A stretch of 64,000 bases of DNA. Source: Neophaeotheca triangularis. Lineage: Eukaryota. Position 1 is the first letter of the stretch. Each line of letters begins with the position of its first letter. The notes beneath the pieces are model-generated. The model did no database searches. It worked only from the letters and a program-made list of their open reading frames with translations, and had not been told where the DNA came from. The DNA is taken from contig BAAIJX010000010.1 in NCBI GenBank assembly GCA_054600435.1, positions 124,001 through 188,000 on the forward strand. Reading direction: 5' to 3'. The translations under genes and the position numbers were made by a program. Below are positions 49,174 to 64,000 of the stretch, in pieces.

Positions 49174-51216
49174 ATGCCTTCCCGCAGCGTCGCCAGACTC
49201 GGCAAACTGAGCAGAGCTGCCACTGAAGGATATGTGTGTCCTTCATGCTTAATACACAGCAGTGCGCGCCCCGCTGCCTCACGCAAGTCGCAGAACGCGT
49301 TGGAGACCAGACGAGCGACCCATAACCGATCATCCTACGCGCGCACTGAGAGACGACACTCCCTTTCACGTCCTACAGCCAAACCGCAAGCTCGTTCGGT
49401 CTCGAGCGGCTCGGTAGCTTCGTCAACAGCCATCAATGCCCCCTCCACGGTGCCCCATGAGTTGCGAGAGCTTCACCAGAGACTAGCGGCACTGCAGGAC
49501 ACGGCCGGCTCCTACGTCGACCTCTCCCGACTACAGCTCGCTCTGCGCAGTCTCGAAAGCGGCGACCCGGTGATCCGCGTGGCTATACTCGGGCTCGGGA
49601 GCAATGGTGCACTGGCCGCGAGAAAGCTGGCAAGAGTACTGTTGGCGGACCCATTGAGCGCGGAAGAAGACTGGGAGCGGCGGTTGCTGGATAGTACACA
49701 GGATGGGAGGGGGCTGCTACTGAAATATGGAGACCCCGACGAGGCGACACCCGCGAGCCCGCTGGTGCAGACCTTGAATGTACCTTCGAGGGTGCTGCGC
49801 AAGGGGAATTTGGAAATACTCGTCACCACGCTGAGTACGAATGCTGCTTCGCGGCCTGAAAGAGCGGAAAGCGGGCTGGAGGATGCTATACTGGTACCGT
49901 CGCTTACCACGCCGACTTCGGCTGGAGGCAGGATGGGTTTCGTGAGGTATCCGCTGCACAGTTCCTTGGTCGTTGCGGAGGGCGTGCAGGGTGCGATTGA
50001 ATACGGACGCCTTCTGCCATCCGTGGCTCATCATGGCATGATCAAGCCTGTCCTCAGTCTTGCCATGCAGCCTGAAAGCAACACAGACAGTAGTGGCACT
50101 CTCAACGTCGATTTAGCCACTCACGCACTGAGTGTCTTCCGTACGGATAAAGCAAACGGCGCTAAATTTAGCCACGAATGGCAAGCAAGCAATCTGCCAC
50201 ATCTTTTGGAATGGCTTCGAGCACTCTGCACGGCATCCCTATCAGGTCTCAAAGCCGGCGTGGAGAACCTCGTAACGGACGTGCTCGCAACATCTAGCAC
50301 TTCCATCGCATCCACCGAGTCTCAGACGACTACCACCGCGTCCTCCTCAACAGTCCCCGAAACCAAACGTAACAACCTCCAAACCGCCATCTCCACCTGG
50401 TCCGAATCCGCCCACCGCGACCTCGAACTTAATCTCTCCTCGTCCCTAGCCTCCTCCTCCTGGCGCCGCACAGCCTGGTTCCGGCTGCTCTGGCGCATCG
50501 ACGATGTCACGCACTCAGCAACCTCCCTACTTCGCAACAGCTGGCTCACCGAAGCCGAAGCCACTCTCGCACACCTCAGCGGCCGCATCTCCGAAGCCAA
50601 CCTCGCAACCCCAGACCAACTCCGCAACACCCCTGCCCTGCTCCCGGAAACCATGCAACAGGAACTCCAAACCCGCGACCAAGCGGCAATCCCCAACCCG
50701 GACTCGGTCGCAGAGCTGAAGCAACTCCCCGCCATGCTCGCGCGCGTGCAGCAGCAGAGCGGCCTCAATCCGCTCTTCGACCCGCCCTGGCCCCAGACCA
50801 TCCACCTCAGCAGACAGACGATGTTGCATACACTGGTGCCCGCACTCCACCGCAAAGCCCAGGCCCTGCTTCTGGGGACCGTGAGCACGACAGCGGGGAC
50901 TTCAGCACTGGCGCTCTGGTTCTGGGTCGCGACCTCGGGGCTCGGGCTGTACGAGGCGGGCGCGATAGCGGCGCTCGGGGTCGTGTGGCCGCTGCGGAGG
51001 TTGCAGAAGCTTTGGGGAGCGGAGAGGGAGGGCTTCGAGGCCACGGTGAGGGAGGAGGGAAGGAGGGTTTTGGGGGATGTCGAGGGGCATTTGCGGAAGG
51101 TCGTCAGGGAAGGTGGGAGGGTCGAGGTGGCGGAGGAAGATTTCACCGCTTGGGCGGAGGCCAGAGGGGCTGTTGACGCTGCCGGGGTTGCTCTTGGGAA
51201 GTTGCAGGGTCGATGA
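49174..51216 (+). CDS. Mmc1-like fungal protein (probable mitochondrial, C-terminal TM segments)
   Basis: 680-aa ORF with presequence-like N-terminus, YVDLSRLQLALRSL, IRVAILGL, LLADPL, WFRLLWRIDDV, two C-terminal hydrophobic segments. Family recalled from memory. Confidence 0.65.
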   Translation: MPSRSVARLGKLSRAATEGYVCPSCLIHSSARPAASRKSQNALETRRATHNRSSYARTERRHSLSRPTAKPQARSVSSGSVASSTAINAPSTVPHELRELHQRLAALQDTAGSYVDLSRLQLALRSLESGDPVIRVAILGLGSNGALAARKLARVLLADPLSAEEDWERRLLDSTQDGRGLLLKYGDPDEATPASPLVQTLNVPSRVLRKGNLEILVTTLSTNAASRPERAESGLEDAILVPSLTTPTSAGGRMGFVRYPLHSSLVVAEGVQGAIEYGRLLPSVAHHGMIKPVLSLAMQPESNTDSSGTLNVDLATHALSVFRTDKANGAKFSHEWQASNLPHLLEWLRALCTASLSGLKAGVENLVTDVLATSSTSIASTESQTTTTASSSTVPETKRNNLQTAISTWSESAHRDLELNLSSSLASSSWRRTAWFRLLWRIDDVTHSATSLLRNSWLTEAEATLAHLSGRISEANLATPDQLRNTPALLPETMQQELQTRDQAAIPNPDSVAELKQLPAMLARVQQQSGLNPLFDPPWPQTIHLSRQTMLHTLVPALHRKAQALLLGTVSTTAGTSALALWFWVATSGLGLYEAGAIAALGVVWPLRRLQKLWGAEREGFEATVREEGRRVLGDVEGHLRKVVREGGRVEVAEEDFTAWAEARGAVDAAGVALGKLQGR

Positions 51217-51403
51217 GCGGGGTGTTGTATCGATACGAAAGTGTAGTTAGTGAAGTGGAGATGTGACAGTATACGAGTTTCAATGTCGACTCCACTGTGG
51301 CAACAGACTAGCCTTCAAGTAGAGATATTTTCAGAGCACAATTTTCAAACGTGAACGAACATGTCGGTGTCGAAAACAGCCACAAACGCAGCGAATACAG
51401 AAT

Positions 51404-54400
51404 CTACACCTCTCTCATAGTCTGCTGCTGCTGCTGCTGGCCCCCGGGCGAAGCCGCCCCCGATCCCCCACCGCCCAAATTCATATTCCCCAGGCGCTGC
51501 ACAAGGCTCGCGCCGACAGCATCTACCGCCCCCTTGGGGCTCCGGAGCGTGATATCGTGCCGGGATCCGCGCACGTTGAACAGCTTGATGGCCGTGTTGG
51601 TCCAGATGCCGCTGCTGCCCTTGTTGGTGGCCATGTCTTGGGCGTAAGCAAAGGACCACAGCATGCTGAGGTACCAGCCAATGGCTAGCGGCGACCAGGA
51701 GAAGGATTGCACTCTTATCTCCGAGGCTGGGGGATGGGGGGTTAGTAGGGCTTTTTTTGGCTTGGGGGGAGGGTGAGGGGCTTACGCTCGCCGCGATCTG
51801 CTCCAGGAGCTCCTTGAGGTGCTGGGCGTTCATGTTCTGCGGCGCGGTTGGCGTGTCCGGCGCTCTCGGTGTTGGGGGCGGTGCCGCCGTTCCCCCGGGT
51901 CGCGATCCCGGTGGGAGGCGGCGAGGAGGCGGGGGTGCGCTGGGAGGAGGCGCCCCTTGCGGTGGCGTGCGAGCCCCGTTCGTCTCGGAATGGTTCATAA
52001 TGCTCGATTGTTTGCAGGATGTTGTGGAGGGGGAGGTATGGCAACCAGAGGCTCAGCTGCGCGGGGGACGTTAGTCTTGGTGCTCAATCTGCAGGCTGTC
52101 TGCCGGGAGAGTAGTCGCTTACCCAGTCGTGCGTAGGAGTGAATGCAGAGTTTGCCTGAGGCGTGATTGAGGCTAAGCTCGTGGTGCTGGCGTTGCGTGA
52201 GGTCGAGCGAGAAAAGGAGCCTTGACCTATCGGCAGCTTGCCCCGAGCTTTCTCAGACATACTACGCGACTGCGTCGGTACCGCGTCCTCCACCGCACTG
52301 GAAATACTGTTTCGCGATACGGACATAGCGCCGTGCTCTTCGTCCTCTTCATCATCTTCACCAACCGCAAATGCGCTTTCTTCCGGTACGTTACCCAGAT
52401 ACGGCGTGCGGCGCATCGAGTCCATTGACGTGGCGCCTGATGGACTGCGAACACCACTCTCGCCCGTCACGCTGCCGGTGCGGTCTTTTCTCTCTTGTGC
52501 TAGTCTGTCAACCTCTTCCATAGCACCTTCGACTGTAAAGTCACGCAGCGCTTCGAAGCGTTTGTGACAGCGCACCATTACCTCGACGAAGCGGCGGTTT
52601 GCTATTACAAGTCAGCACGGTGAGCTCTGCCACTTCAACAAGGCGGAAGGCAATGCAGGCAGTGGCTAAAACTCTTCCTCACCCATTTCACCACACCTTC
52701 GCTAAAATTCCAACCGTGCATAGTGATAAATCTCTGACCACCACAGCCGGCAGCCGCGCAATAAAAAGTCTTCACTCACCTTCATACTGATGATCCAGTA
52801 TCGCATTGAGCGCCTCAAGCAGCGACAGCAACAGCGTATGGTTGGTCTCATTCGCAAGCAAGAACTTGGGCGAGGACATGGACACGAAAAGATCCAGAAG
52901 CTTCGAGCTCGTTGCGCGCTGGAGGTCACGCACAAACGGTGCTATATTCACCACAATGGCCAGGAGGGCTGGGTATATGGATTCGAGGCGGCCTTTGGTT
53001 GTTGTGAGCATCGTATGGATGGACTAAACCACAGGTCAGCATAATTTTCGCAGTCACCGAATGCCACCTTTGCTTGCCAGCGCCCCCTAGGCAGGCCGAC
53101 TGCGTATGAGCACCATCGAACAAGAGAAGACGTACCGTGATAAGATAGTCGGCATAGGTGCCATGGAAATTCTGGATCCTCAAAATCGCTGGCAAAGACT
53201 CTTGACCGACAAAGGGTTTGTTCAAACGCTTGCCGAAAGTGGGCTCAACGCTCAGGGTCTGCAAGATGAAGACGCACATCCGCACGATACCTTGTCTGGC
53301 AGGGTCGTCCTTTGCATCCATGGCGTAATACAGCACAAGGACGACAAAGTCGTGCGCTCGATCGGTATCGATGATGAAGCTGCGGAAGCGCTTGTTGCAC
53401 TGTAGCAACTCCCAGAACAGGACCAACATCTCCGGAGCCCACGGTATGACTTTCTGGCCGCCTGGAAAATAAGACGTTACGCCCGATACTGGTTGAGTCA
53501 AGACCAAGGTCAACCCTTGTTGGATGAATTGGAAGTCTTCGGCTCTGTGCAAACGACTGAGAGCTTTTCGGAAAGCATTCGGTTCGTCGTGGGGTACTGG
53601 GTAGATGACCAGCACTAACAGGAAGTGTAGGGAATAGGTGACCAGTAGTTGTTTCGGATCCTTGGCTGCAGTCAAGTCGATCGGCACCCGCCATGAGGCT
53701 GGGTTGTACTTTAGTACCTGTAGACGATATCAGCTTTGCTTTTGAGCTGGAACGTCACGCTCCGTCCAGCGCTCTGGAGCCATTGTAACCGGTACATCTT
53801 CCGGGTCGGAGATCAAAAGCTAACGTACCGTATTGAGTAGCGAGCATACCACGCTCAACACGACTTGTCGACTGCTTTGCGTCGACAAGTAGGTGAGTGG
53901 CTTGATATCCGTCGTGGCCACGACGTCTGCATCGGCAAATCAGTAATCCGACCCGTCATACGAACGCTTCAGAGCAACATACTCGGTGAAATGTACATCG
54001 TCCGGGATGTCAGCGTAAGTAGCAGTCTCAAAACTTCCATCGCGTTCCTTTCGTTTTCTTTCGTCATGCCATTGCTCTGCTTACAGCCAATGCCGCTTTG
54101 CCAGATAGCAAAGTTGACGTTCAAATCCGGTCTTCCGTTGGCATCCAACTTCTTTGGCAGGGTGAAATTGGGGAAGAAGAGATAATTGATGAGCAAGTCG
54201 ATGAGCTCCTCTCCCAATGGCCTTCCAATCTCCTTGTCTTCTTCACTCTCGCCGAACTTCTTCTTCGGGTGAAGGCCATCGAAGAGTTGGCCCTGTCTGT
54301 CTAATAGGTGATCCCAGGTCGAAGTGGGTTTCCGCGGTTGCCAGAAGAACTTGTCTTCCCAACCAATGAGATGGTCTGCCTCGTAGATGTACGGCAGTAA

Positions 54401-57389
54401 ACGAGTCAGAATGCGCACGCAGTTGAGAACTTCTGGAGCGATGGGTATGTGGACGTCGCTATAGCAATGACGAGTCTGAAGTGCCTTGAGACGGGAAATG
54501 ACGGTGTAGATGAGTGTTTCTGCATTCTTCTTCGGCGCAGGCAAGGCGTTTCTGCTTCCGATATTGGGCGTGCTGAGCGTCAGACTGCGAAGGTCGTTCG
54601 GTGACCAGAGCGCGAAGACATCGTCGGCACTTTCGGGGAGTTGGTAGAACTGGACAGACGTGGTTAGTATGGTGGGTTCTATCGCTCATTGCCACATCCT
54701 GGGCTGCACCGGACCAGCAATCCAGCTAATAGCGAGCCCACAATATGGCTTTCCAACGTGAACTTCTACGGTTGGCTGACAGGGGGTCCCGGAGTTTCGG
54801 CTGAAAGTTATCTCCACGTCGGTGACTACTCGCTCCCGAGATCCTGCCCGAAAAGAACACTGGGCGTAGCGAACGAGAGAGAGCCCGATGGTGGTCGGCC
54901 GTTCACGTATCGTTCGAAGGTGATGAAAGTGTCTGGGATGCTGTGTTTGGTTTCTTGCCGACACTTCGATGGTGCGATCACTTCCACACGTCTAAACACG
55001 GCAGGAGGTTCGCGCTATCGCAGACTGTGCGAACCGGGCATCCTGCGCCAGTTCACCTCAAACGGAACCGGAATTGAACATTTCTCCACCATCCTCGAGT
55101 TCCTTGCGACTGAGTCGAAGTTTCCCAGCTACATCTCATAAGAAATCAGTCGGTAACCCGGAACCTGCAACACACGGGCGATGAGCTTCGAGCGCAGAGA
55201 TTGAACAACCCTCCAGAAAGCTCGACTCCCCTTTCGGAGATTCTTGAAGTGTTCATGACCACTCGCTCGCACTTTCGACACAACCAGAGCGTTCTATCGT
55301 GCTGCGATCCGTCGGCTGCCTGAAAGCAAAGAAAGCTTCTTTCCTGACACAAGACCTGCCTCTGCCATCGGCTTCAAAACCAGCGCGATTCTTCCGTGCA
55401 ACCAACTGGCAATCGCATTTTAGGACAAGTCTTTCAGCCCAGACACCTGAATACCGCCGGCAAGTATGGGCAGGCATCTTCCCATTCCTCAGCGGATTCG
55501 CGCTCACAGCCAAGACGACAACCAGTTGCGCCTTTCGAACCAGCCATCGCTTGAGAAGAAAGCTCCTGTAGGTATTCATCTAGTGGCAAATTGAGAATTC
55601 AGATGCGACTTTGCTACTCTGATAAATCCCCGAGCTAAAAATCTTTCGCGCAGTGACCGGAGTTTCATTCTGTTGATCGAACTTCAGGCTCAGGGCTCCT
55701 AGTTCTCGCAGCAATTGACTGTCCGCTGGTATAAGAGGTCGTCTTTATGATCGGTCAAAACCTCCGCTTCAGTTCACTTCGATCAGCAGCTTCACATATA
55801 ATTGCCGCGTCTCCTGAGGCGTTGACCGGGCAGGGCTCCTAGTACCGACGTTCGGCAGGCGTCGAGAAGTCTGCTCGCCGGCATCAAGAGTGAAGACCAG
55901 CTCCAGCGTCGTTGCTAGCTTGCCTCTAGAGATATCTCCAGTTCCGACTTCGGTGGACAATCCTCAGGGGAACTTTGGTAACTCCCTACCACTGAAGCTG
56001 GTTGCGTTCACTTTCACCCCCTAGTCCAAGTACCAAGAAGGCATCAATAAGGCGTTGTCGTTTGCTAAGATTGCATCGGTTGAGGCTCACAAACCGAAAC
56101 GCGGAGCCTCCTCCGAGGGTAAAGATAAGTTTCCATTGCCGAACAAATTACTTCCATCTCTCGCGACACACAGGAAATCTCCGTCGACCATTCTCATCGA
56201 TCCAAGTCTGGTATGTTTCTGTGACTAGCCTCAGCTGCGTTGCTGTTCTCAACAGTGATAACATCACATCGGGAAGCCTTTGACGCGTACTGACAAGTTG
56301 CCCATCCAGACTCGCAGACTGAAGCAACTGGCTGCCGTTGAAGGTACAAGTAGTTCATCCTTGCAACGCAAGTGCCTTTCTCTAACAACCAACAGACAGA
56401 TTCCTGAAGCCCTGCAGTGTACCGACATTGCGTCCCACTAGACTCAGGGACAGAGACAGCTTGCCGTCGTCGAAAGTACAAATAACTCTTTCTTGCCGCC
56501 TAGGGAACTTCTCACTAACAACCCGCAGTCATCTTGGGAACATTGGCAGTCTACCGACACGGCATTCCGTTGAGCTCGTGGACTGAAGCACCAAGCCATC
56601 ATTGAAGGTACGAGTAGCCCGTCGAGGCCGCGAAGGTACGCCTTTCTCTTACAACACACAGTCTGTCTCTGGGATCAACTAGCTTTGCGATATTAAGCTT
56701 TCCCTGCTCCAAGCACCACTCTGGTAAAGCACTTTACGGCTTCGTCTTCCAGGTTCGGGGTGATAAAGAAGCGGGTCGTCCACGAGGGTATGAGTTTGTC
56801 CTTGATCTCGGTATGAAACGTTCTGCTGATATCCTCTTTGGACTGAAGCATCTGTCCGCCGCCGAAGGTACGAATAGTTCTTCGCAGCCGCGCAAGTGCC
56901 TTCCCTCTTACAACACACAGTCTACTTCCGGGGCCAAGCAAGCCTGGGGCATCTCGCTTTCCGTGGTCGAAGGACAATTCCAGTCGATAACGCTGCGGAT
57001 TCGTATTCCAAGTCCGGCGCGATAGTGAAGCGAGCCGTTCGTGTGTGTATGGATTCAGTTTAGTCCCGCCATGGTACATCTTGCTGACACCCTCTCCGAC
57101 AGTCCTCGACCAATTCACTTCAACAGTGAAGCTTCCCATCTTTCGGCAAGGGTTTGGGCATAGGCACCCAGCGGTGTCCGGTAGGCTCGTTCGATGCTTG
57201 AGTCCCAGCTCTGCCGGCTTGCTCATATCCACCCCTACAGTCTATCCTCTCCTGGACCCCCTCTTTCCACAATAAAGAGATAGGAAAACTTACCCTTGTC
57301 CACCACGGACTGTCGGCTGGTATGTCTGCCTCTCCCGCAAGGCGAAAGATGTCTTCCTTGAAAGCCAACTTGCTCTCCGAAGCACCCAT
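51404..57389 (-). CDS. HID1: HID1/Ecm30-family Golgi protein, multi-exon, 2644-nt first intron
   Basis: Exon 1 57294-57389 MGASESKLAFKEDIFRL (myristoylation-type start) joins in phase 0 to 54649 FYQLPESADDVFAL. LNCVRILTRLLPYIYE, IWQSGIG, WELLQCNKRFR, IWTNTAIKLF motifs. Stop at 51404. Confidence 0.9.
56211..56920 (+). repeat. Degenerate tandem array, period about 132 bp, inside HID1 intron 1
   Basis: Homologous GACTGAAGCA..GAAG|GTAC..CT(A/T)ACAAC..CAG units with GT at 56344, 56476, 56608 and 56868; weaker units at 56211 and about 56724. Confidence 0.85.
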
Positions 57390-57779
57390 CCTGACGTCTC
57401 AACCAGCAATCTTCCTCTTCCCAACTGGCGGGCAGTTTGTTTTCACCAGATCAGAACATCGGCGGTCTGCGATTGCAAAGGTTCGTAACTTGTATGGGCG
57501 AAGGTCGGCGAGTTTGGCAGGTGATCGGAGTGTGTTTGCTGATGATGGTCGGTCGCAGCAATCCCAGAAGTGCAGGGCAGTAGCCGACAGCGGAGAAGCC
57601 GCCGCTCTTTCGTCCCGACTTTCTGGAGCGTGCGCGGCTGCACTGCAGGTGGGGGTGGGATTTCCGAATTCTTCTTGTCGAGGAGAGGAGGAGGAGGTAA
57701 GTGAAAGAAAAGAAGGGGGGACGACGATAAGAATACCTGAGGTGGGTAATGAATAATCAATGCCTTCTTCTCGGACCAA

Positions 57780-57871
57780 CAGGCTACAGGCTACAGGCCA
57801 CAGGCTACAGGCTACAGCCAATTGGTCGTCGGATGCCGAGCTCGGAAAAGGCAGGCAGGCAGGCAGGCAGG
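57780..57871. repeat. Simple repeats (CAGGCTA)x5 and (GGCA)x5
   Basis: Read directly at 57780-57817 and 57849-57871. Confidence 0.85.
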
Positions 57872-58045
57872 GGTCGGAACGATCCATGGCCCGGATAAGT
57901 CATGGGGTTTTTGGCGTGTTGCTTTCGCGCGACCTCACCTCGTCCTTTTTCACTTTCTCGCCCCTGCAGAGCCTGTCCAGTGTCCAGTGTCTCCTATACA
58001 TCCAGTACATGTACTGTCTTGCTGACCCTTGCGCTGTATATTATA

Positions 58046-58103
58046 GCAGTCCATCAGTCCGGCCGGCAGTCCATCAGTCCGGCAGGCAGTCCATCAGTCC
58101 GGC
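58046..58103. repeat. 20-bp minisatellite, 3 copies (GCAGTCCATCAGTCCGGCnG)
   Basis: Copies start at 58046, 58066 and 58086. Confidence 0.9.
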
Positions 58104-58752
58104 ATCTGGCATTTGGCAGAGACGCTCACCTCCATATCGTCTCCCAAATTAAATAAAATACGCCCTCCAGTAAATAGTCGACAAGGGCAATCTTACTCTT
58201 GTCCTCGAGGCGCGAACAGGCAGGTTTGCGCTCAACGCGTGCGATGATGCCTCCTTTCTCCCTCTTTCCTGGCCCCAAGTTGCTAATACCGTGCTCAAGG
58301 AAAAGGAAGAAGGAAGAAAACACAGGGCGCTGTTGCTTTTCGTCGTCTACCGTAGCGGTTTGAGCTCCTCGTCGTCCAAGAGAGAAAGAGAGAGAGAGAG
58401 CCTCGTCACCTACCGTAAGTCTCCCGTCTTGTTTGCTTGTCGCATGACCATGTCGTCTCATCTAACATCGTACTACCTATCAGATCGCCATCCGGCTACG
58501 TGAGGCTACGTGAGGCATACCCTTCGGCGTACTGCTCGTTTCTACGCCGGACCTTGTTGCCCAGTAGGGACCTCCCGTTGCATTGCGGACCGTGCTCACG
58601 CCCGCGGCATTGTTTTGTGTCGAAATTCTCATCCACCATCCTTCGACTCTTCTTTTTTCTTGCCCAGCGACATCACCTACCATTCTCTCACAGCCGTCTA
58701 CGCGTACCACATCAACCTCCTTCACCACAGCAATAACCACATCACCATCAAC

Positions 58753-60213
58753 ATGTCTCACAACGAGATCGTCGCCGCCAAGCAAGCTTTCCTGGAGAAG
58801 CTGCGCTCCGGAATGACTGAAGCCCAATACGAGAGCAGCAGAGAGCGCATCGAGCACGTCTTCGGCCTCTTCGTGGGCGCCATCGAGCACGGCGACGCTA
58901 CTGTACTCCAAGTAAGTCTTCTCCTGCACTGGCAACCTTTCAACCACTGACATCTCTCGATAGAACCTCATCGGCGCTGGAGACATGGTTCTTACCAACG
59001 AGGAGCGTATGAGCGCCCTCTTCGCCTACCTCGCCGCCGTTATCGGCCACAACACCACCCCCTCCCGGCGATGCAGCCTCCTAAGGTTCGCTCGCAATGC
59101 CCTGCAAATGGGTAACAAGCGCGGCCTCACCAGCCGCGCTTTGTCCGCACTATACGAAGGCTTGGTGAACCTAATACAGATCGCCGCCAAGGCCGACGCG
59201 GCCGTCGAAGCCGTCCGCAACGAGGTGGCCTCCTGGCGCGAAGAGCCATACTCCTCCAACGACGAGGAGATCACCGACATCTTGGAAAGTGCCAAGAGCC
59301 GTGCGGAGAGGGCCAAGGCCCCCGCACCCACCCACATGTCCTTTGCCTTGGGCAAAGGAACAAAGCGAAAGGCGCAAGAGCCTTTGCCGCGCCCTACCCG
59401 GCGCCACAATCCTCTGGGAGACCCAGAGGAAGACAACAAGAGGCGGGCTCTTGCGCCGGCCGCCAGAGGCCCCCGCGTGGTGTTTGGGGAGCCACCAAGG
59501 AGGCTGGGGGGGGTTCGGGGCCCCATGGTCCCTGGGTTTGCGGTCCGTGTGCGTCGTCGTGCGGAGGGAGGAGAGAGTGGTAAGTTACAACATTCATCTT
59601 GCCAAAGGATAACCACGCTACTGAAGAGTATATGCTAACAATCTTTACAGGACGACCAGGCCTCACGGCCAACGGCGCGGTGGTGGTGGCGGCGGAGGCG
59701 GGAGTGTCGCGCGCCCTTGCGGCGCACACCCCCCCTTCCAATGTCACCGCCACCGGTGACCTCGGGGAGCTCGTTCGTGCTGGGAACACGACATATTCAC
59801 AGTGGGGCTTCAGGCCCGCAACGCTCCCAGCGCGGGCGGAGCGTGACCGGTCGTTTGCTGGGGCTCGCGCCCAAAACCAGTTCGCCGCCAGTATGGCGGA
59901 CGCCACAGCGAGGGCGGCGGCCCTCGCTGCAAGCAGTCGTGCTGGCGGTGGTGCTGGCGGAGGGGCCCCTCCTCCCGGTGTTCGTGGCGGGTTTGCTGGG
60001 CGCGGTCGTGGTGGCGGTGGTGGCGGTGGTGGCGGAGCTTGCTTCTCGTGCGGTGGCTTCGGCCACCAAGCCAGAGATTGCCCCAGGGGGGGTAGGAGCC
60101 CCCCTGGGGGGCATGGGGGTTACCGTGGTCCTCGAGGGCCACCTCGTGGTCCCCCTCGCGGCCCTCCTCGCGGCGGGCATGGCGGGCGGTTTGGCGGTGG
60201 CAGGCGGTGGTGA
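58753..60213 (+). CDS. Hypothetical protein with C-terminal CCHC zinc knuckle and RGG/RGPP-rich tail, 3 exons
   Basis: ATG 58753. Introns 58912-58963 and 59580-59650 (GTAAGT donors, CTGAC/CTAAC branches) join three ORFs in frame. CFSCGGFGHQARDC. Confidence 0.8.
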
Positions 60214-61243
60214 GGGGTTGTTGCTTGTGCTGGGAGGGGAGTAGGGGGGTGAGGGGATGAGGGGTGGAGGAGAGAGGAGTGGCGTTTGTTTGCTGCTGGG
60301 GAGAGGAGTTTTGCTGGTGCTTGCCGCACCAATGTACTATACCACAGCACGGCGAGCATTTTGCGCGCCTGCATTGCGTGCGAGCGAGGGTGAAATCAAT
60401 TGAAAAAGTTTACGCGGCGACTATTGCTCCCTGATTGATCACGACCTGTTGAACGTGAATGATCCTGTTTGTAAACAGCTACCTTCGATGACACGTGAAT
60501 GATAGCATAACTAGACTGATGCGTATCAGCAACAGCCGCGAGACAGCGTCAAGAACCTCTTAGCCCAGCGTTACCCAGTGGCAAAAATGCCACGGCTCCC
60601 ATACACTCTCCGTCAAGACTCTCGCCTGCCCAGTAACAACGCCCGCCATCCCAACACCAGCAAGCACCAGTATGCCAAGCCCACACCTCGTCGACGCGGA
60701 CCCCTACCACGCTCTACCATGATCAAGAACACCCACTCAGCCATCACCCGCTCGCTGCCGTAGGCTCCAGACCCTTTCAAGCCATCCCCCACCACAAGCC
60801 TCATCTGAAGCCAGCCCACTCCCGTCACCTAAGCACTCACTCCGCCGTAGCCCTCGCGTTGACTCCCCCTATCACTCACCGTCTCCATTCATCTCGTTCT
60901 CCCGCTCTCCGTGCTACTGAAATATACCTTCCCAGCGATGACTCCCCCTCACCACTCTCCATCATCAACCCACACTCCGAACCGCGACGACTCTTACCCC
61001 AGCCCCTCACGGACTCTAGTAGTAGCTTAGTACGGGCGAGATGATCGACACCGTCGAAACCCGACTCCGGATGCAAAGACACGGGGATGCCTTCTCACTA
61101 GCGGTGAGGATAAAGCGTTTCAAGTAAATCTATACAAAAGGTAAACAGAATCGCTAATGCTCAAGCAAGGCCCACAACGCTCTATGCCCGCACAAGATGC
61201 CAGCAAACACAAAACAAGCCTCCATCCGACCAAACCACACCGA

Positions 61244-64000
61244 CTACCTTCTATTGAAATTCAAATACCTGCTCCCTAGGAACAAAAACACCAGATTACT
61301 GCCCACAAAAGCGAGCAAAATGCCAAAATCCCGCCATCGGGTGTCGAAGCTAATTTCCAGGGGTTCGTAGAACTGGTCGCCTATGCGGTAAGCGCAGTAC
61401 GAGCAGTCGCTGGTCTGGTTGTTGGTGATGTAGCCGGGGCCGCCCATTGAGAAGAAGTCGCTCATGTACTCGCCGCAGGTTTGGCCTGATGGCGCGGTGA
61501 ATTGGTTTAGTTCGCCTGGGGTGCATTCGACGGGAAGGTCGTGGAGTTCGGTTGAGACGAGGCCAGAGATGAGGCGGGTGAAGCTGTTGGAGGGGAGGGG
61601 GTTAGAGGGTGGTTGGGTTAAAATGAGAGGGATGGGGAAAACTTACGGGTCGAGCTCGTAAAGCCAGGCTCGCCAGAAGCCAGGGATGTTGGGTTTGGGG
61701 ATTGCGACGCCGCAGAAAAGGGCGAAGATGACGATGATGAAGGGGTTGAGCAGCATAGCGATGAAGGTTGAGGGGGTGAGGGCACTGATCATCTGTGCCA
61801 GGGTTACGGAGAAGACTTCGGTGACGAGGACGATGAGGAAGTTGTAGCCGGCTCGTGAGGAGTCCATTTGGAAGCCCGAGACGTAGTAGATGGGAAGGAA
61901 AAAGCCGACGGCGCAAAGTAGGCTGTAGGGCATTTCTGCGATGACCATAGAAAGCGCGAAAGGTAGTTGCCTGTACGTCTTTGATGCTGCTTCGCGGTAG
62001 TAGATGAGGCGGCTCATGTCGTACTTGGGCTCAACCTTAACGAGGGTATTAGTATTTAGACTACCGCTGAATCAAATGGCATATGTGTACGCACCTGTGC
62101 AAGAATAAGTGCAGGGAGTACAGTCGTCTGGAAAATGACAAAGACGCGGTATTGCAATGCGGACCGAGAGTTGTCAAGCTAGAAGACCGGGTTAGCATAG
62201 AGCATCGCAGGAAGAAGACCAGGACTACAAACCTGAAGGAACATCAGGCCAGTCAGCAGCGCAATCGTCACATGATTGAAGAACCTCGTAAAGCCATAGT
62301 TCGGCGCCCGCCAAAAAGCCTTCTGTTGACGAGCATTGACAACACGAATCTGATGCCACAGGGGCGTGGCAAATTCCTTTTGCTCAATCTGCGGTGTGTT
62401 ACCGCAATCCTCAGCACGTTGGCGTTTGATACGGGTGATTTCGTCCTTGGTGGCGGCCAGCTCGTCAGAGTCCCTCCATATCTCGCCCCAGTCCTTGTCG
62501 CCGATTCTCGGGGCTTGGCCCGCTCCAATGGCGTCGAGCATCCATTCTGCTGGGTTGGCGTCGTGAGGGCAGTGCGCGCCATACTTGCTGAAATAGGCGA
62601 GCAGAGTGCTGGCGTCGCGGCCGATGTCGCCGAAGTAGACGGTCTCGCCACCGCGCTGGAGGAGGAGCAGACGGTCGAAATTTTCGAACAGGGAGGCGTT
62701 GGGTTGATGGATGGTGCAAAGGATTGCTTGGCCTGCAGCAGAGAGTTTGCGCAAGAAGCGCACAATGTTGAAGGCCGACTGGCTGTCGAGTCCAGAGGTG
62801 GGTTCGTCGAGGAAAAGGAGTAGTTCTGGTTTGGCGGCCAGTTCGACACCGATGGTCACTCGCTTTCGCTGTTCGACGGCCAAGCCGGACTCTGGGTCGC
62901 CAATCACTGCGTCGGCCATATCTTCCATCTCCAACAAAGAGATGATCTCTTCGACATAGGCGTATTTCTCTTCGCGGCTGGTCTCGTAAGGTTGTCTAAG
63001 ATCGGCGGAAAACCTCAAAGCCTCTCGGACGGTGGCTGAAGCTTCGTGGACATCCAACTGCTCTGCGTAACTTGTTCCACGCTGAAAGGCCGTGCCAGGT
63101 GGAGAGCCATCTACCAACTTGTCGCCACTGATAACACCAATGTTCTTGCGAGAGGCTAAAACATCCAGCAGAGTCGTTTTACCAGCACCACTAGCTCCCA
63201 TCAAAGCAGTCAGCTGTCCAGGCTTTACGTATCCAAAGATGTTTTTTAAAAGCCGCAGCTGCCCAGAAGGCACTGGCACATCATAGCAAAGATCTTCCCA
63301 AGTTAAGACGGCTTCGGACTCGATTTTGAGGTCGGATCCAGCATCGCCGGCTTCTTTATTCAGTCGACGCTCTTTTCTTGCTTTCAATTCATCGTTGAGC
63401 TCCTTGAGTTCCTTGTCTTCCTTGGCGAAGAATGTGATTGTCTTTCCGCCAGCACCCCATTGGACGTACTCTCCGAGGGTGGTATTGGCTATGAGGAAAC
63501 CAATGATGAGCGCCACGATGATGCCAAAGTTGCGCCACAAGTCGCTTCTAGAGTACCTAAAACCGGCTTCAATGTAGCTGGTCCCTGCAACGATCGGTTC
63601 ACCGGGACTTGAGCCTTGCAAAGTACAGACTTGGTTCTCAATGTTGTAGTCGGCGTTACCAGTTAGGTCATACGGAATCAGGGATGTACCATCGCAGCTG
63701 AGATCTATCCTGCCGAACTCGTTGGCCATTAGAGCAGCGAAGCCAAGCCCAAGAGCGTTGATGTAGAAAATCCAACGCAGCCAGACTTGCTCCGACTGCC
63801 ATTGAATCAAATAGCCGGAAGTGAGCACGAAGAGCGTGATGATGACAGCCGCGAATTTCATAGCGTAATCAAAGTCTGGACAGAGACATCCGACGGTCCT
63901 GAAAAATAGTGTCATTGCGAGGTAGCCTGAGACGATGATAAGGTAGAAGGTGAAGAAGGCGCCAGCGTCCAACACGAGGCCGCACATGAAGTAGACAATG
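61244..64000 (-). CDS. ABCG/PDR-family multidrug ABC transporter (5' part outside window)
   Basis: GQLTALMGASGAGKTTLLD, EQRKRVTIGVEL, LLFLDEPTSGLD, LCTIHQP, NPAEWML, CSYCAY..GDQF, WRDFGI. Several 3' introns. Confidence 0.97.

Follow-up and report, generated by a model that had tools for sequence, protein, structure and literature searches.

A decayed tandem array with opposite-strand intron-like segments in the long first intron of HID1 in Neophaeotheca triangularis

We analysed a 64,000-nucleotide (nt) stretch of DNA from the fungus Neophaeotheca triangularis (contig BAAIJX010000010.1, positions 124,001 to 188,000; hereafter the window, by whose own numbering all positions are given), which carries on its minus strand a gene for a HID1 protein. 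The first intron of this gene holds a tandem array whose units, 132 or 260 nt long, contain segments that resemble short introns on the plus strand, antisense to HID1 (Table 1). An initial annotation, made from the letters alone, had read the array as a multiply spliced antisense non-coding RNA or a decayed nested gene, built by tandem exon-intron duplication. Here we describe the array as an old, local, decayed tandem duplication, and we give an even chance to the view that it is neutral non-coding sequence that enlarged an ancestral intron and, in doing so, copied one or two sets of splice-like motifs.

Position and history of HID1 intron 1

To place the array, we aligned the Pfam Hid1 profile with the window. 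Profile positions 1-32 fell on 57389-57294 and positions 32-231 on the exon that starts at 54649, both on the minus strand, and this split bears out the annotated location of the array inside a HID1 intron and antisense to the gene. On the minus strand the two junctions read AGG/GTAAGT at 57294/57293 and ATACTAAC...GTCCAG/TTC at 54650/54649. Four named orthologous proteins align over residues 1-32, and then over about 31-267, on either side of intron 1; the profile and orthologue alignments therefore leave no HID1 sequence missing between exons 1 and 2. The closest named HID1 proteins, which are 60-63% identical, are those of Polychaeton, Meristemomyces, Acrodontium, Oleoguttula and Baudoinia. 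The other introns of the gene that could be placed by homology are 56, 112, about 178 and 59 nt long.

We then compared the intron site among related genes. One metagenome scan with the exon 2 peptide returned 20 HID1 loci at 43-71% identity, several of them near-duplicates, so that the number of species is below 20; we located exon 1 in every locus and read the junctions. In 11 of them (L001-L004, L006-L009 and L018-L020) the coding sequence runs through the site with no intron, and one (L005) has a 125-nt intron (GTATGT...GCTGAC...CAG) at exactly the same phase-0 site. In the eight most distant loci (L010-L017) the homologous site shows a gap whose size fits a 53-nt intron, the intron sequence having been read in L010, L013 and L017 and assigned in the other five from the same 59-nt offset. 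These comparisons suggest that the position of HID1 intron 1 is ancient, that the intron was lost in several lineages and that it was enlarged 20-50 fold here. The inserted sequence of about 2.5 kb showed no similarity to the 20 related loci by BLASTN or TBLASTX, and a TBLASTX comparison of intron 1 with the rest of the window gave a single 26-residue match (E 0.035). We rejected a transposon insertion as the source of the 2.6 kb, having found no terminal inverted or long direct repeats and no Pfam transposase or reverse transcriptase.

Table 1. Features of the HID1 intron 1 region, in window coordinates
Feature	Position	Strand	Description and basis
HID1 exon 1, coding part	57294..57389	-	MGASESKLAFKEDIFRLAGEADIPADSPWWTR; Pfam Hid1 profile and orthologue alignment
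HID1 intron 1	54650..57293	-	2,644 nt; GTAAGT donor, TACTAAC branch, CAG acceptor
Possible fifth module, strongly decayed	56093..56173	+	GTAAAG at 56119, CACACAG end at 56173; nhmmer E 0.12
Intron-like segment upstream of U1	56211..56309	+	GTATGT...TACTGAC...CAG, 99 nt; direct reading
Repeat unit U1	56311..56442	+	132 nt; repeat search, BLASTN, profile, local alignment
Intron-like segment 1	56344..56395	+	GTACAA...CTAAC...CAG, 52 nt; direct reading
Repeat unit U2	56443..56574	+	132 nt; most diverged of the four
Intron-like segment 2	56476..56528	+	GTACAA...CTAAC...CAG, 53 nt; kept in RNA contig 56403-56651
Repeat unit U3	56575..56834	+	260 nt; shared a-part and b-part of about 128 nt
Intron-like segment 3	56608..56661	+	GTACGA...CTTAC...CAG, 54 nt; first 44 nt kept in RNA contig 56403-56651
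Second-type intron-like segment, U3 b-part	56788..56848	+	GTATGA...CTGAT...AAG; homologous to 57047-57102
Repeat unit U4	56835..57094	+	260 nt; a-part and b-part
Intron-like segment 4	56868..56920	+	GTACGA...CTTAC...CAG, 53 nt; kept in RNA contig 56665-57275
Second-type intron-like segment, U4 b-part	57047..57102	+	GTATGG...CTGAC...CAG; relaxed pattern; kept in RNA contig 56665-57275
RNA contigs of run X1	56403-56651, 56665-57275, 57293-57628		0 differences to the window; unspliced; depth 3.5-5.5
CT-rich tract	57665..57725	-	just upstream (minus strand) of RNA contig end 57628; sequence reading
Micro- and minisatellites	57779-57817, 57849-57871, 57974-57991, 58046-58104, 58297-58318, 58379-58400		cluster includes (ACAGGCT) x5.6, (AGGC) x5.8, 20-mer x3, (AG) x11

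An old tandem array within the intron

A repeat search identified four direct-repeat copies of 62 nt, beginning at 56317, 56449, 56581 and 56841 (start-to-start distances of 132, 132 and 260) and 65-79% identical to the reference copy, together with a second repeat family of 22 nt that corresponds to the 3′ ends of three of the intron-like segments. These copies, and direct reading, agree with the annotated array of 132-bp period and its four homologous segments. Lag autocorrelation peaked at 259 and 132, and the signal was confined to approximately 56270-57110. In a sensitive self-BLASTN search of 54601-57500 against the whole window, 56579-56792 aligned with 56839-57051 (216 nt, 69%), and no copy of the array was found outside the locus within the 64 kb. 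The 216-nt self-alignment therefore makes the last two units 260 nt long, each consisting of the common part and an extra part of about 128 nt; this extra block in U3 is homologous to that in U4 (z = 12.4) and unrelated to the shared part. Local alignments of unit against unit scored z = 6.6 to 25.9 over shuffles in five of the six pairs, the weakest pair being U2 and U3a with z = 2.8 only. Pairwise identity between units was 58-64% over about 101 columns, and 67.6% over 256 nt for U3 and U4. The array, which extends over about 0.8 to 1.0 kb or roughly a third of intron 1, thus consists of homologous units arranged head to tail at a regular period, as a tandem repeat or minisatellite does, and it is an old, local, decayed tandem duplication. 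It had been called hidden, and Tandem Repeats Finder, run at a minimum score of 30, indeed missed it because the units are too diverged.

A profile built from the four modules recovered those modules with nhmmer at E values of about 1e-23 to 1e-25. It detected no further copies in the 64-kb window or in the 20 related HID1 loci, apart from a weak possible fifth module at 56093-56173 (E 0.12), which contains a 17-nt repeat (D3) and aligned with U3a and U4a at z = 3.0. An additional intron-like segment that had been annotated at 56119-56173 overlaps this candidate. Towards the 3′ end of the intron, in its 3′ half, 55073-55103 and 55200-55230 form another weak direct repeat (31 nt, 71% identity, spacing 127), which may be due to chance or may be a remnant of a further old tandem duplication.

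The dinucleotide indices of the array (56311-57094) differ from those of the window, with a TpA/ApT index of 1.10 and a (CpA+TpG)/(ApC+GpT) index of 1.00, compared with 0.70 and 1.21 for the window. This shift has the direction expected for repeat-induced point mutation, and both values lie near the thresholds for that process. We rejected repeat-induced point mutation as the main signal, as the differences between units have a transition/transversion ratio of about 0.9-1.7, with transitions not dominant, and GC content, at 52%, is not depleted.

Anatomy of the intron-like segments

Direct reading of the four homologous segments reproduced the annotated coordinates, lengths (52, 53, 54 and 53 nt), donors, branches and CAG ends exactly. 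The spacers between the modules, annotated as 80 and 79 nt and as holding no frame, are of these lengths, and the 79-nt spacer is closed by stops in all three plus-strand frames. The initial annotation had further credited the segments with full intron anatomy, a description that they do not satisfy. Introns of the window that are supported by frame or homology have donors of the form GT[AG]NG, all with G at +5, and branches of the form CT[AG]A[CT]; these reference introns were partly picked with the donor and branch patterns themselves, so that the agreement among them is not fully independent. None of the four modules passes the strict host pattern, GT[AG]NG[TC] with CT[AG]A[CT]. Those of U1 and U2 have a good branch, CTAAC, and a donor, GTACAA, without G at +5, and those of U3 and U4 combine an acceptable donor, GTACGA, with a branch, CTTAC, that lies outside the pattern. 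In the strict scan the acceptor of the second-type segment at 57047-57102 was reached instead from donors at 57041 and 57043, which are 6 and 4 nt upstream. The segment that had been annotated as starting at 56211 could be read through to a CAG at 56309, and from branch to acceptor it aligns with the TACCGAC...AG stretch of the U1 and U2 spacers.

An unspliced RNA over the 5′ end of HID1

We compared positions 50000-62000 with the one public metatranscriptome run in which the region is present (X1), which is kept as unstranded contigs. Three contigs match the window without differences and are collinear with the genome, with no joints and no loose ends there. Segments 2 and 4, most of segment 3 and the second-type segment at 57047-57102 are present in these contigs unspliced. 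Because two contigs of this independent run match across the array (56403-56651 and 56665-57275), the array is not an assembly artefact. Depth was 0 over HID1 exons 2-6 (52000-54650) and over the neighbouring genes within 50000-62000, and the only other matches were short, low-complexity and mismatched, near 57780-57817 and 60139-60170. That cover is limited to 1.2 of 12 kb argues against evenly spread DNA contamination in the run; we use the zero depth for this purpose only and not as proof that the genes are silent. These data suggest a distinct 5′ RNA over 56403-57628, separate and relatively abundant, that comprises the HID1 leader, exon 1 and, within intron 1, the first ~890 nt. We attribute the breaks between contigs (56652-56664 and 57276-57292) to low depth and do not read them as splice branch points. 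A CT-rich tract lies just beyond the contig end at 57628; we take such tracts to be promoter elements of filamentous fungi, and its place presumably fits a HID1-sense start at 57628. The RNA is most likely HID1-sense, and either intron-retaining or early-ending. A sense RNA would be silent on plus-strand splicing, and an antisense RNA would mean that the segments are not spliced efficiently; neither case offers positive evidence for splicing.

No coding or structured-RNA signal in the array

To look for a nested gene, we scanned the intron by codon-usage log-odds, trained on the long open reading frames (ORFs) of the window and applied in 49-codon windows. HID1 exons scored 5-20 bits, and the intron did not exceed 4.6 bits except at 56740 on the minus strand (10.7 bits). 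Sixty-two stop-to-stop ORFs of at least 35 amino acids overlap the intron; only the two that are HID1 exons match Pfam, and the remaining 60 gave nothing better than E 0.018. The longest intron ORFs, of 182 amino acids (56696-57241, minus strand) and 135 amino acids (56618-57022, plus strand), had no homologue in a word-indexed search of 5.8 billion proteins. An exhaustive phmmer search with the 182-residue ORF returned a single match (E 4.7e-6), to a 2,884-residue protein with 13 fn3 repeats, in which one query piece of about 30 residues was matched repeatedly; we judged this fibronectin-III protein to be a spurious, repeat-inflated chance match and not a homologue. The same minus-strand frame crosses U3b and U4; its only in-frame connection to HID1 exon 1 would use an ATAG acceptor at 57242 that is without a branch motif. 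We rejected it as HID1-linked coding sequence and consider it probable chance, about 0.1 such ORFs being expected in the intron on a rough calculation by hand.

Mismatches between U3 and U4 are distributed 9/16/11 over the codon phases, with no clear period of three, and an impression of synonymous change between GFVFQVRGDKEAGR and GFVFQVRRDSEASR, gained by eye, failed over the whole block. A search for the longest stop-free spliced path was uninformative, as it found ‘593-aa’ paths through almost any sequence. A decayed nested gene had been offered as one reading of the array, and no nested coding gene could be constructed from the codon scan, Pfam or the protein searches. Searches for structured RNA were similarly negative: Rfam 15 gave no family at E <= 1 over 54000-58600, ARAGORN found no tRNA or tmRNA gene, and when the sequence was inspected visually for C/D-box snoRNA features, no box C accompanied by a terminal stem was seen. 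All eight folds of the units (four units, both strands) were less stable than dinucleotide shuffles, with z from +0.38 to +2.24. A scan for bacterial-type promoters and terminators was set aside as not meaningful for a fungus. With neither a coding nor a fold signal, the array encodes no protein and no structured RNA today.

Relation to known duplicated introns

We compared the array with duplicated introns described in the literature. The closest architecture is that of the Cryptococcus gene CNN00420, in which introns were created by expansion of repeats of about 107 nt that contain exon ends and a full intron (Sharpton et al. 2008, PMC2395259). Both have a tandem unit of approximately 100-130 nt with two ‘exon’ ends and one full-length short intron or intron-like segment, and both point to local unequal crossing-over or slippage. 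At the level of motifs, the array has the content of such an intron-containing repeat, a 52-54-nt GT...CAG segment with 79-80 nt of homologous flank. The Cryptococcus repeats, however, lie in an expressed coding gene and their introns are identical or nearly so and polymorphic, whereas the array has no gene or frame, its units are 58-68% identical, no splicing was seen, and it lies antisense in another intron.

In the account of Collemare et al. 2013 (PMC3609843), duplicated fungal introns fall into three classes. Same-gene duplications are of ordinary length and fold energy, and half have duplicated exon flanks. The array resembles them in having the length of an ordinary intron, no special fold energy and duplicated flanks. 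It differs in that same-gene duplications are annotated, near-identical introns of one gene, whereas its segments are neither annotated or spliced nor near-identical; no coding signal marks a gene here, and the segments are retained in X1, which is one unstranded run of low depth. Introner-like elements, by the same account, number in the hundreds, have about twice the length of regular introns and fold at lower energy. The initial annotation had drawn a comparison with these elements, which fails on length and structure. Alike are the host class, Dothideomycetes, and the multiplication of segments with donor, branch and acceptor motifs. As far as the 64 kb show, the array comprises four local module copies and a weak fifth. 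In contrast to introner-like elements, its modules are 52-54 nt long where the short introns of the window are 52-63 nt and those of HID1 56, 59, 112 and ~178 nt, the units fold no better than shuffles, none of the four modules has the standard host splice signals, and the flanks are duplicated too.

Tandem duplication within a gene explained less than 1% of recent intron gains in Zymoseptoria according to PMC4457414. Intergenic homologues of introns have been described in the same genus (Wu et al. 2017, PMC5647799); by definition they match a verified intron from another part of the genome at 80% identity or more over at least 80% of their length. These elements are similar to the array in that intron-like sequence stands in DNA that is non-coding on that strand; within the 64-kb window no matching partner of the array was found. 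An ordinary decayed minisatellite shares with the array its head-to-tail units, which differ between 132 and 260 nt by one indel of about 128 nt, its absence of coding or fold signal and its confinement to one locus, but not its uneven conservation, which peaks at the splice-like motifs.

A neutral duplication weighed against the conservation of splice-like motifs

If the array is a neutral tandem duplication, at least four units of 132 or 260 nt would have arisen in HID1 intron 1 by unequal crossing-over or replication slippage, as part of the expansion by which a short ancestral intron reached 2.6 kb. The ancestral unit would have carried plus-strand GT...CTNAC...CAG segments by chance, or would have inherited them from an earlier sequence. 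Since the duplication copied these segments together with their flanks, as had been annotated and as the repeat search, BLASTN and local alignments agree, the four ‘introns’ would be one occurrence counted four times. Today the array is transcribed inside an unspliced RNA, to which HID1 exon 1 and the 5′ leader belong as well. A relaxed intron pattern, which is matched 0.39 times per kb per strand in the window as a whole and 0.78 ± 0.92 times in the shuffled intron, gave five matches on the plus strand of intron 1 and none on the minus strand. As four of the five are copies of a single ancestral occurrence, only about two can be counted as independent, and chance is adequate for one ancestral intron-like occurrence. 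Local tandem duplication of sequence with intron-like modules is a known kind of event, and it is the place that is unusual here; a narrow literature search found no such array inside an intron and on the opposite strand.

Several observations weigh against neutrality. The initial annotation had suggested comparing the conservation of the splice motifs with that of the rest of the unit, and they proved to be better conserved. In an alignment of the four units, 14 of the 17 splice-like columns (donor positions -3 to +6, a 5-nt branch and a 3-nt acceptor) are invariant, with a mean pairwise identity of 0.89, compared with 27 of 86 for all other columns (0.55). The latter comprise intron-interior columns (15 of 40 invariant; mean identity 0.60) and flank columns (12 of 46; 0.51). 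When blocks of matching size were placed at random, the observed conservation was reached in 10 of 20,000 trials; uniform neutral decay does not predict this excess, which is the strongest argument for the initial annotation. The test is biased in favour of the motif, which was noticed because it survives in all copies, and it draws on four related sequences only. A further caveat is that in the second type of segment about 10 of the 14 motif positions are identical between U3 and U4 by hand count, which is no better than the 67.6% background. Neutral duplication is also strained by the one-strandedness of the relaxed matches and by the presence in the 260-nt unit of a second intron-like segment on the same strand, with the segment at 56211-56309 as a third. 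Finally, the contigs that support it come from a single unstranded run at a depth of 3.5-5.5, in which a rarer spliced plus-strand form could be missed.

Alternative explanations

The array could instead be the relic of a dead multi-exon gene on the plus strand, nested antisense in the HID1 intron, whose frame is lost and whose splice motifs are still recognisable, and which would have grown in the manner of same-gene duplications, by expansion of a repeat that contains exon ends and whole introns. We think this unlikely. Such a relic would explain why flank, intron-like segment, flank and second intron-like segment follow each other on one strand and why the splice-like columns are the best conserved. 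One frame, common to the short sequences that precede the four donors, reads LKQLAAVE, QRQLAVVE, LKHQAIIE and LKHLSAAE, and several of the differences are at third positions or conservative, a comparison made by eye and without statistics. The kind is also known, from the ~107-nt Cryptococcus repeats (PMC2395259) and from the duplicated exon flanks in half of same-gene intron duplications (PMC3609843). Yet the array lacks coding potential, and it has neither a Pfam match nor a credible homologue; the 79-nt spacer is closed in every frame, mismatches show no period of three, and the flanks (0.51) are no better kept than the intron interior (0.60), which is the opposite of what selected exons would show. 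Less likely still is an active, multiply spliced antisense non-coding RNA, which would run on the plus strand through the array toward HID1 exon 1 and its promoter, with introns maintained through selection on their splice sites and with drifting exons, and may damp HID1 expression by antisense transcription. In spliced non-coding RNAs the splice motifs are conserved and everything else is free, and the array shows this contrast. RNA is present at 56403-57628 while HID1 exons and neighbouring genes have depth 0 in X1, and it is therefore not ordinary HID1 mRNA. The contigs nevertheless run unspliced, without a joint, across three modules and one second-type segment, two donors are without the +5 G, two branches read CTTAC, and the contig end at 57628, by the minus-strand CT-rich tract, fits a HID1-sense start better than an antisense end. 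The multiply spliced antisense RNA of the initial annotation thus gains no splicing evidence from X1, although unstranded contigs drop rare forms and their collinearity is no refutation. With similarly low confidence we can entertain the extended idea that a spliced antisense RNA grew by multiplying its own exon-intron module, that selection keeps its splice signals only and that it modulates HID1; if true, a spliced antisense locus would be a place that breeds new short introns in non-coding RNA before they reach coding genes.

The conserved blocks might also serve HID1 itself, as intronic enhancer sites or as signals for early termination of the sense pre-mRNA that yield a short 5′ RNA, a function that we consider improbable. 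Candidate protein-binding sites would be GGACTGAAGCA, GAAGGTACRA, CTCTWACAAC...CAG and their complements. Blocks of 10-19 nt are fully conserved in units whose identity is otherwise 58-68%, and the distance from exon 1 downstream to the array is 200-1,000 nt. The RNA takes in the leader, exon 1 and some 890 nt at the start of the intron but no downstream exon, and the branch-like motif of U3 and U4 reads GTAAGA, a donor-like sequence, on the minus strand. On the other side, no factor or motif was identified, the relaxed pattern gave no intron-like segment on the minus strand, and the RNA end at 56403 may reflect low depth only. Least probable of all, and in our view very remote, is that the segments are copies of a mobile intron family, either introner-like elements or their non-genic homologues, in non-coding DNA. 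The host is a Dothideomycete of the Capnodiales/Mycosphaerellales kind, as its HID1 relatives at 60-63% identity suggest, and such elements have been described in Dothideomycetes (PMC4457414, PMC3609843), as have intron homologues in intergenic DNA of Zymoseptoria (PMC5647799). The duplicated flanks speak instead for a segmental repeat and not an inserted element, 52-54 nt is an ordinary intron length here whereas introner-like elements are described as about twice as long, there is no stable fold, and no other copy exists in the 64 kb or the 20 related loci.

Flanking sequence

A cluster of micro- and minisatellites (Table 1) lies between HID1 and a divergent plus-strand gene that starts near 58700. 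This gene (58700-60300) has a 52-nt intron at 58912-58963 (GTAAGT...CTGAC...TAG), and by ORF translation its product has a C-terminal glycine/arginine-rich region with a CCHC zinc-knuckle-like motif.

Implications for intron growth

Three features stand out as unusual for a Dothideomycete: a first intron of 2.6 kb in HID1, the absence of any intron from this site in many relatives, and an RNA confined to the leader, exon 1 and the first ~0.9 kb of intron 1. If the array is neutral, it would be a small, clear example of a fungal intron of 50-125 nt growing 20-50 fold by local tandem duplication. It would also carry a warning, that intron-like motifs copied by duplication are not independent evidence of splicing. 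If the splice-like motifs are under selection, the array would be a rare case of fungal intron multiplication by repeat expansion outside a coding gene, and also a testable antisense regulator of HID1.

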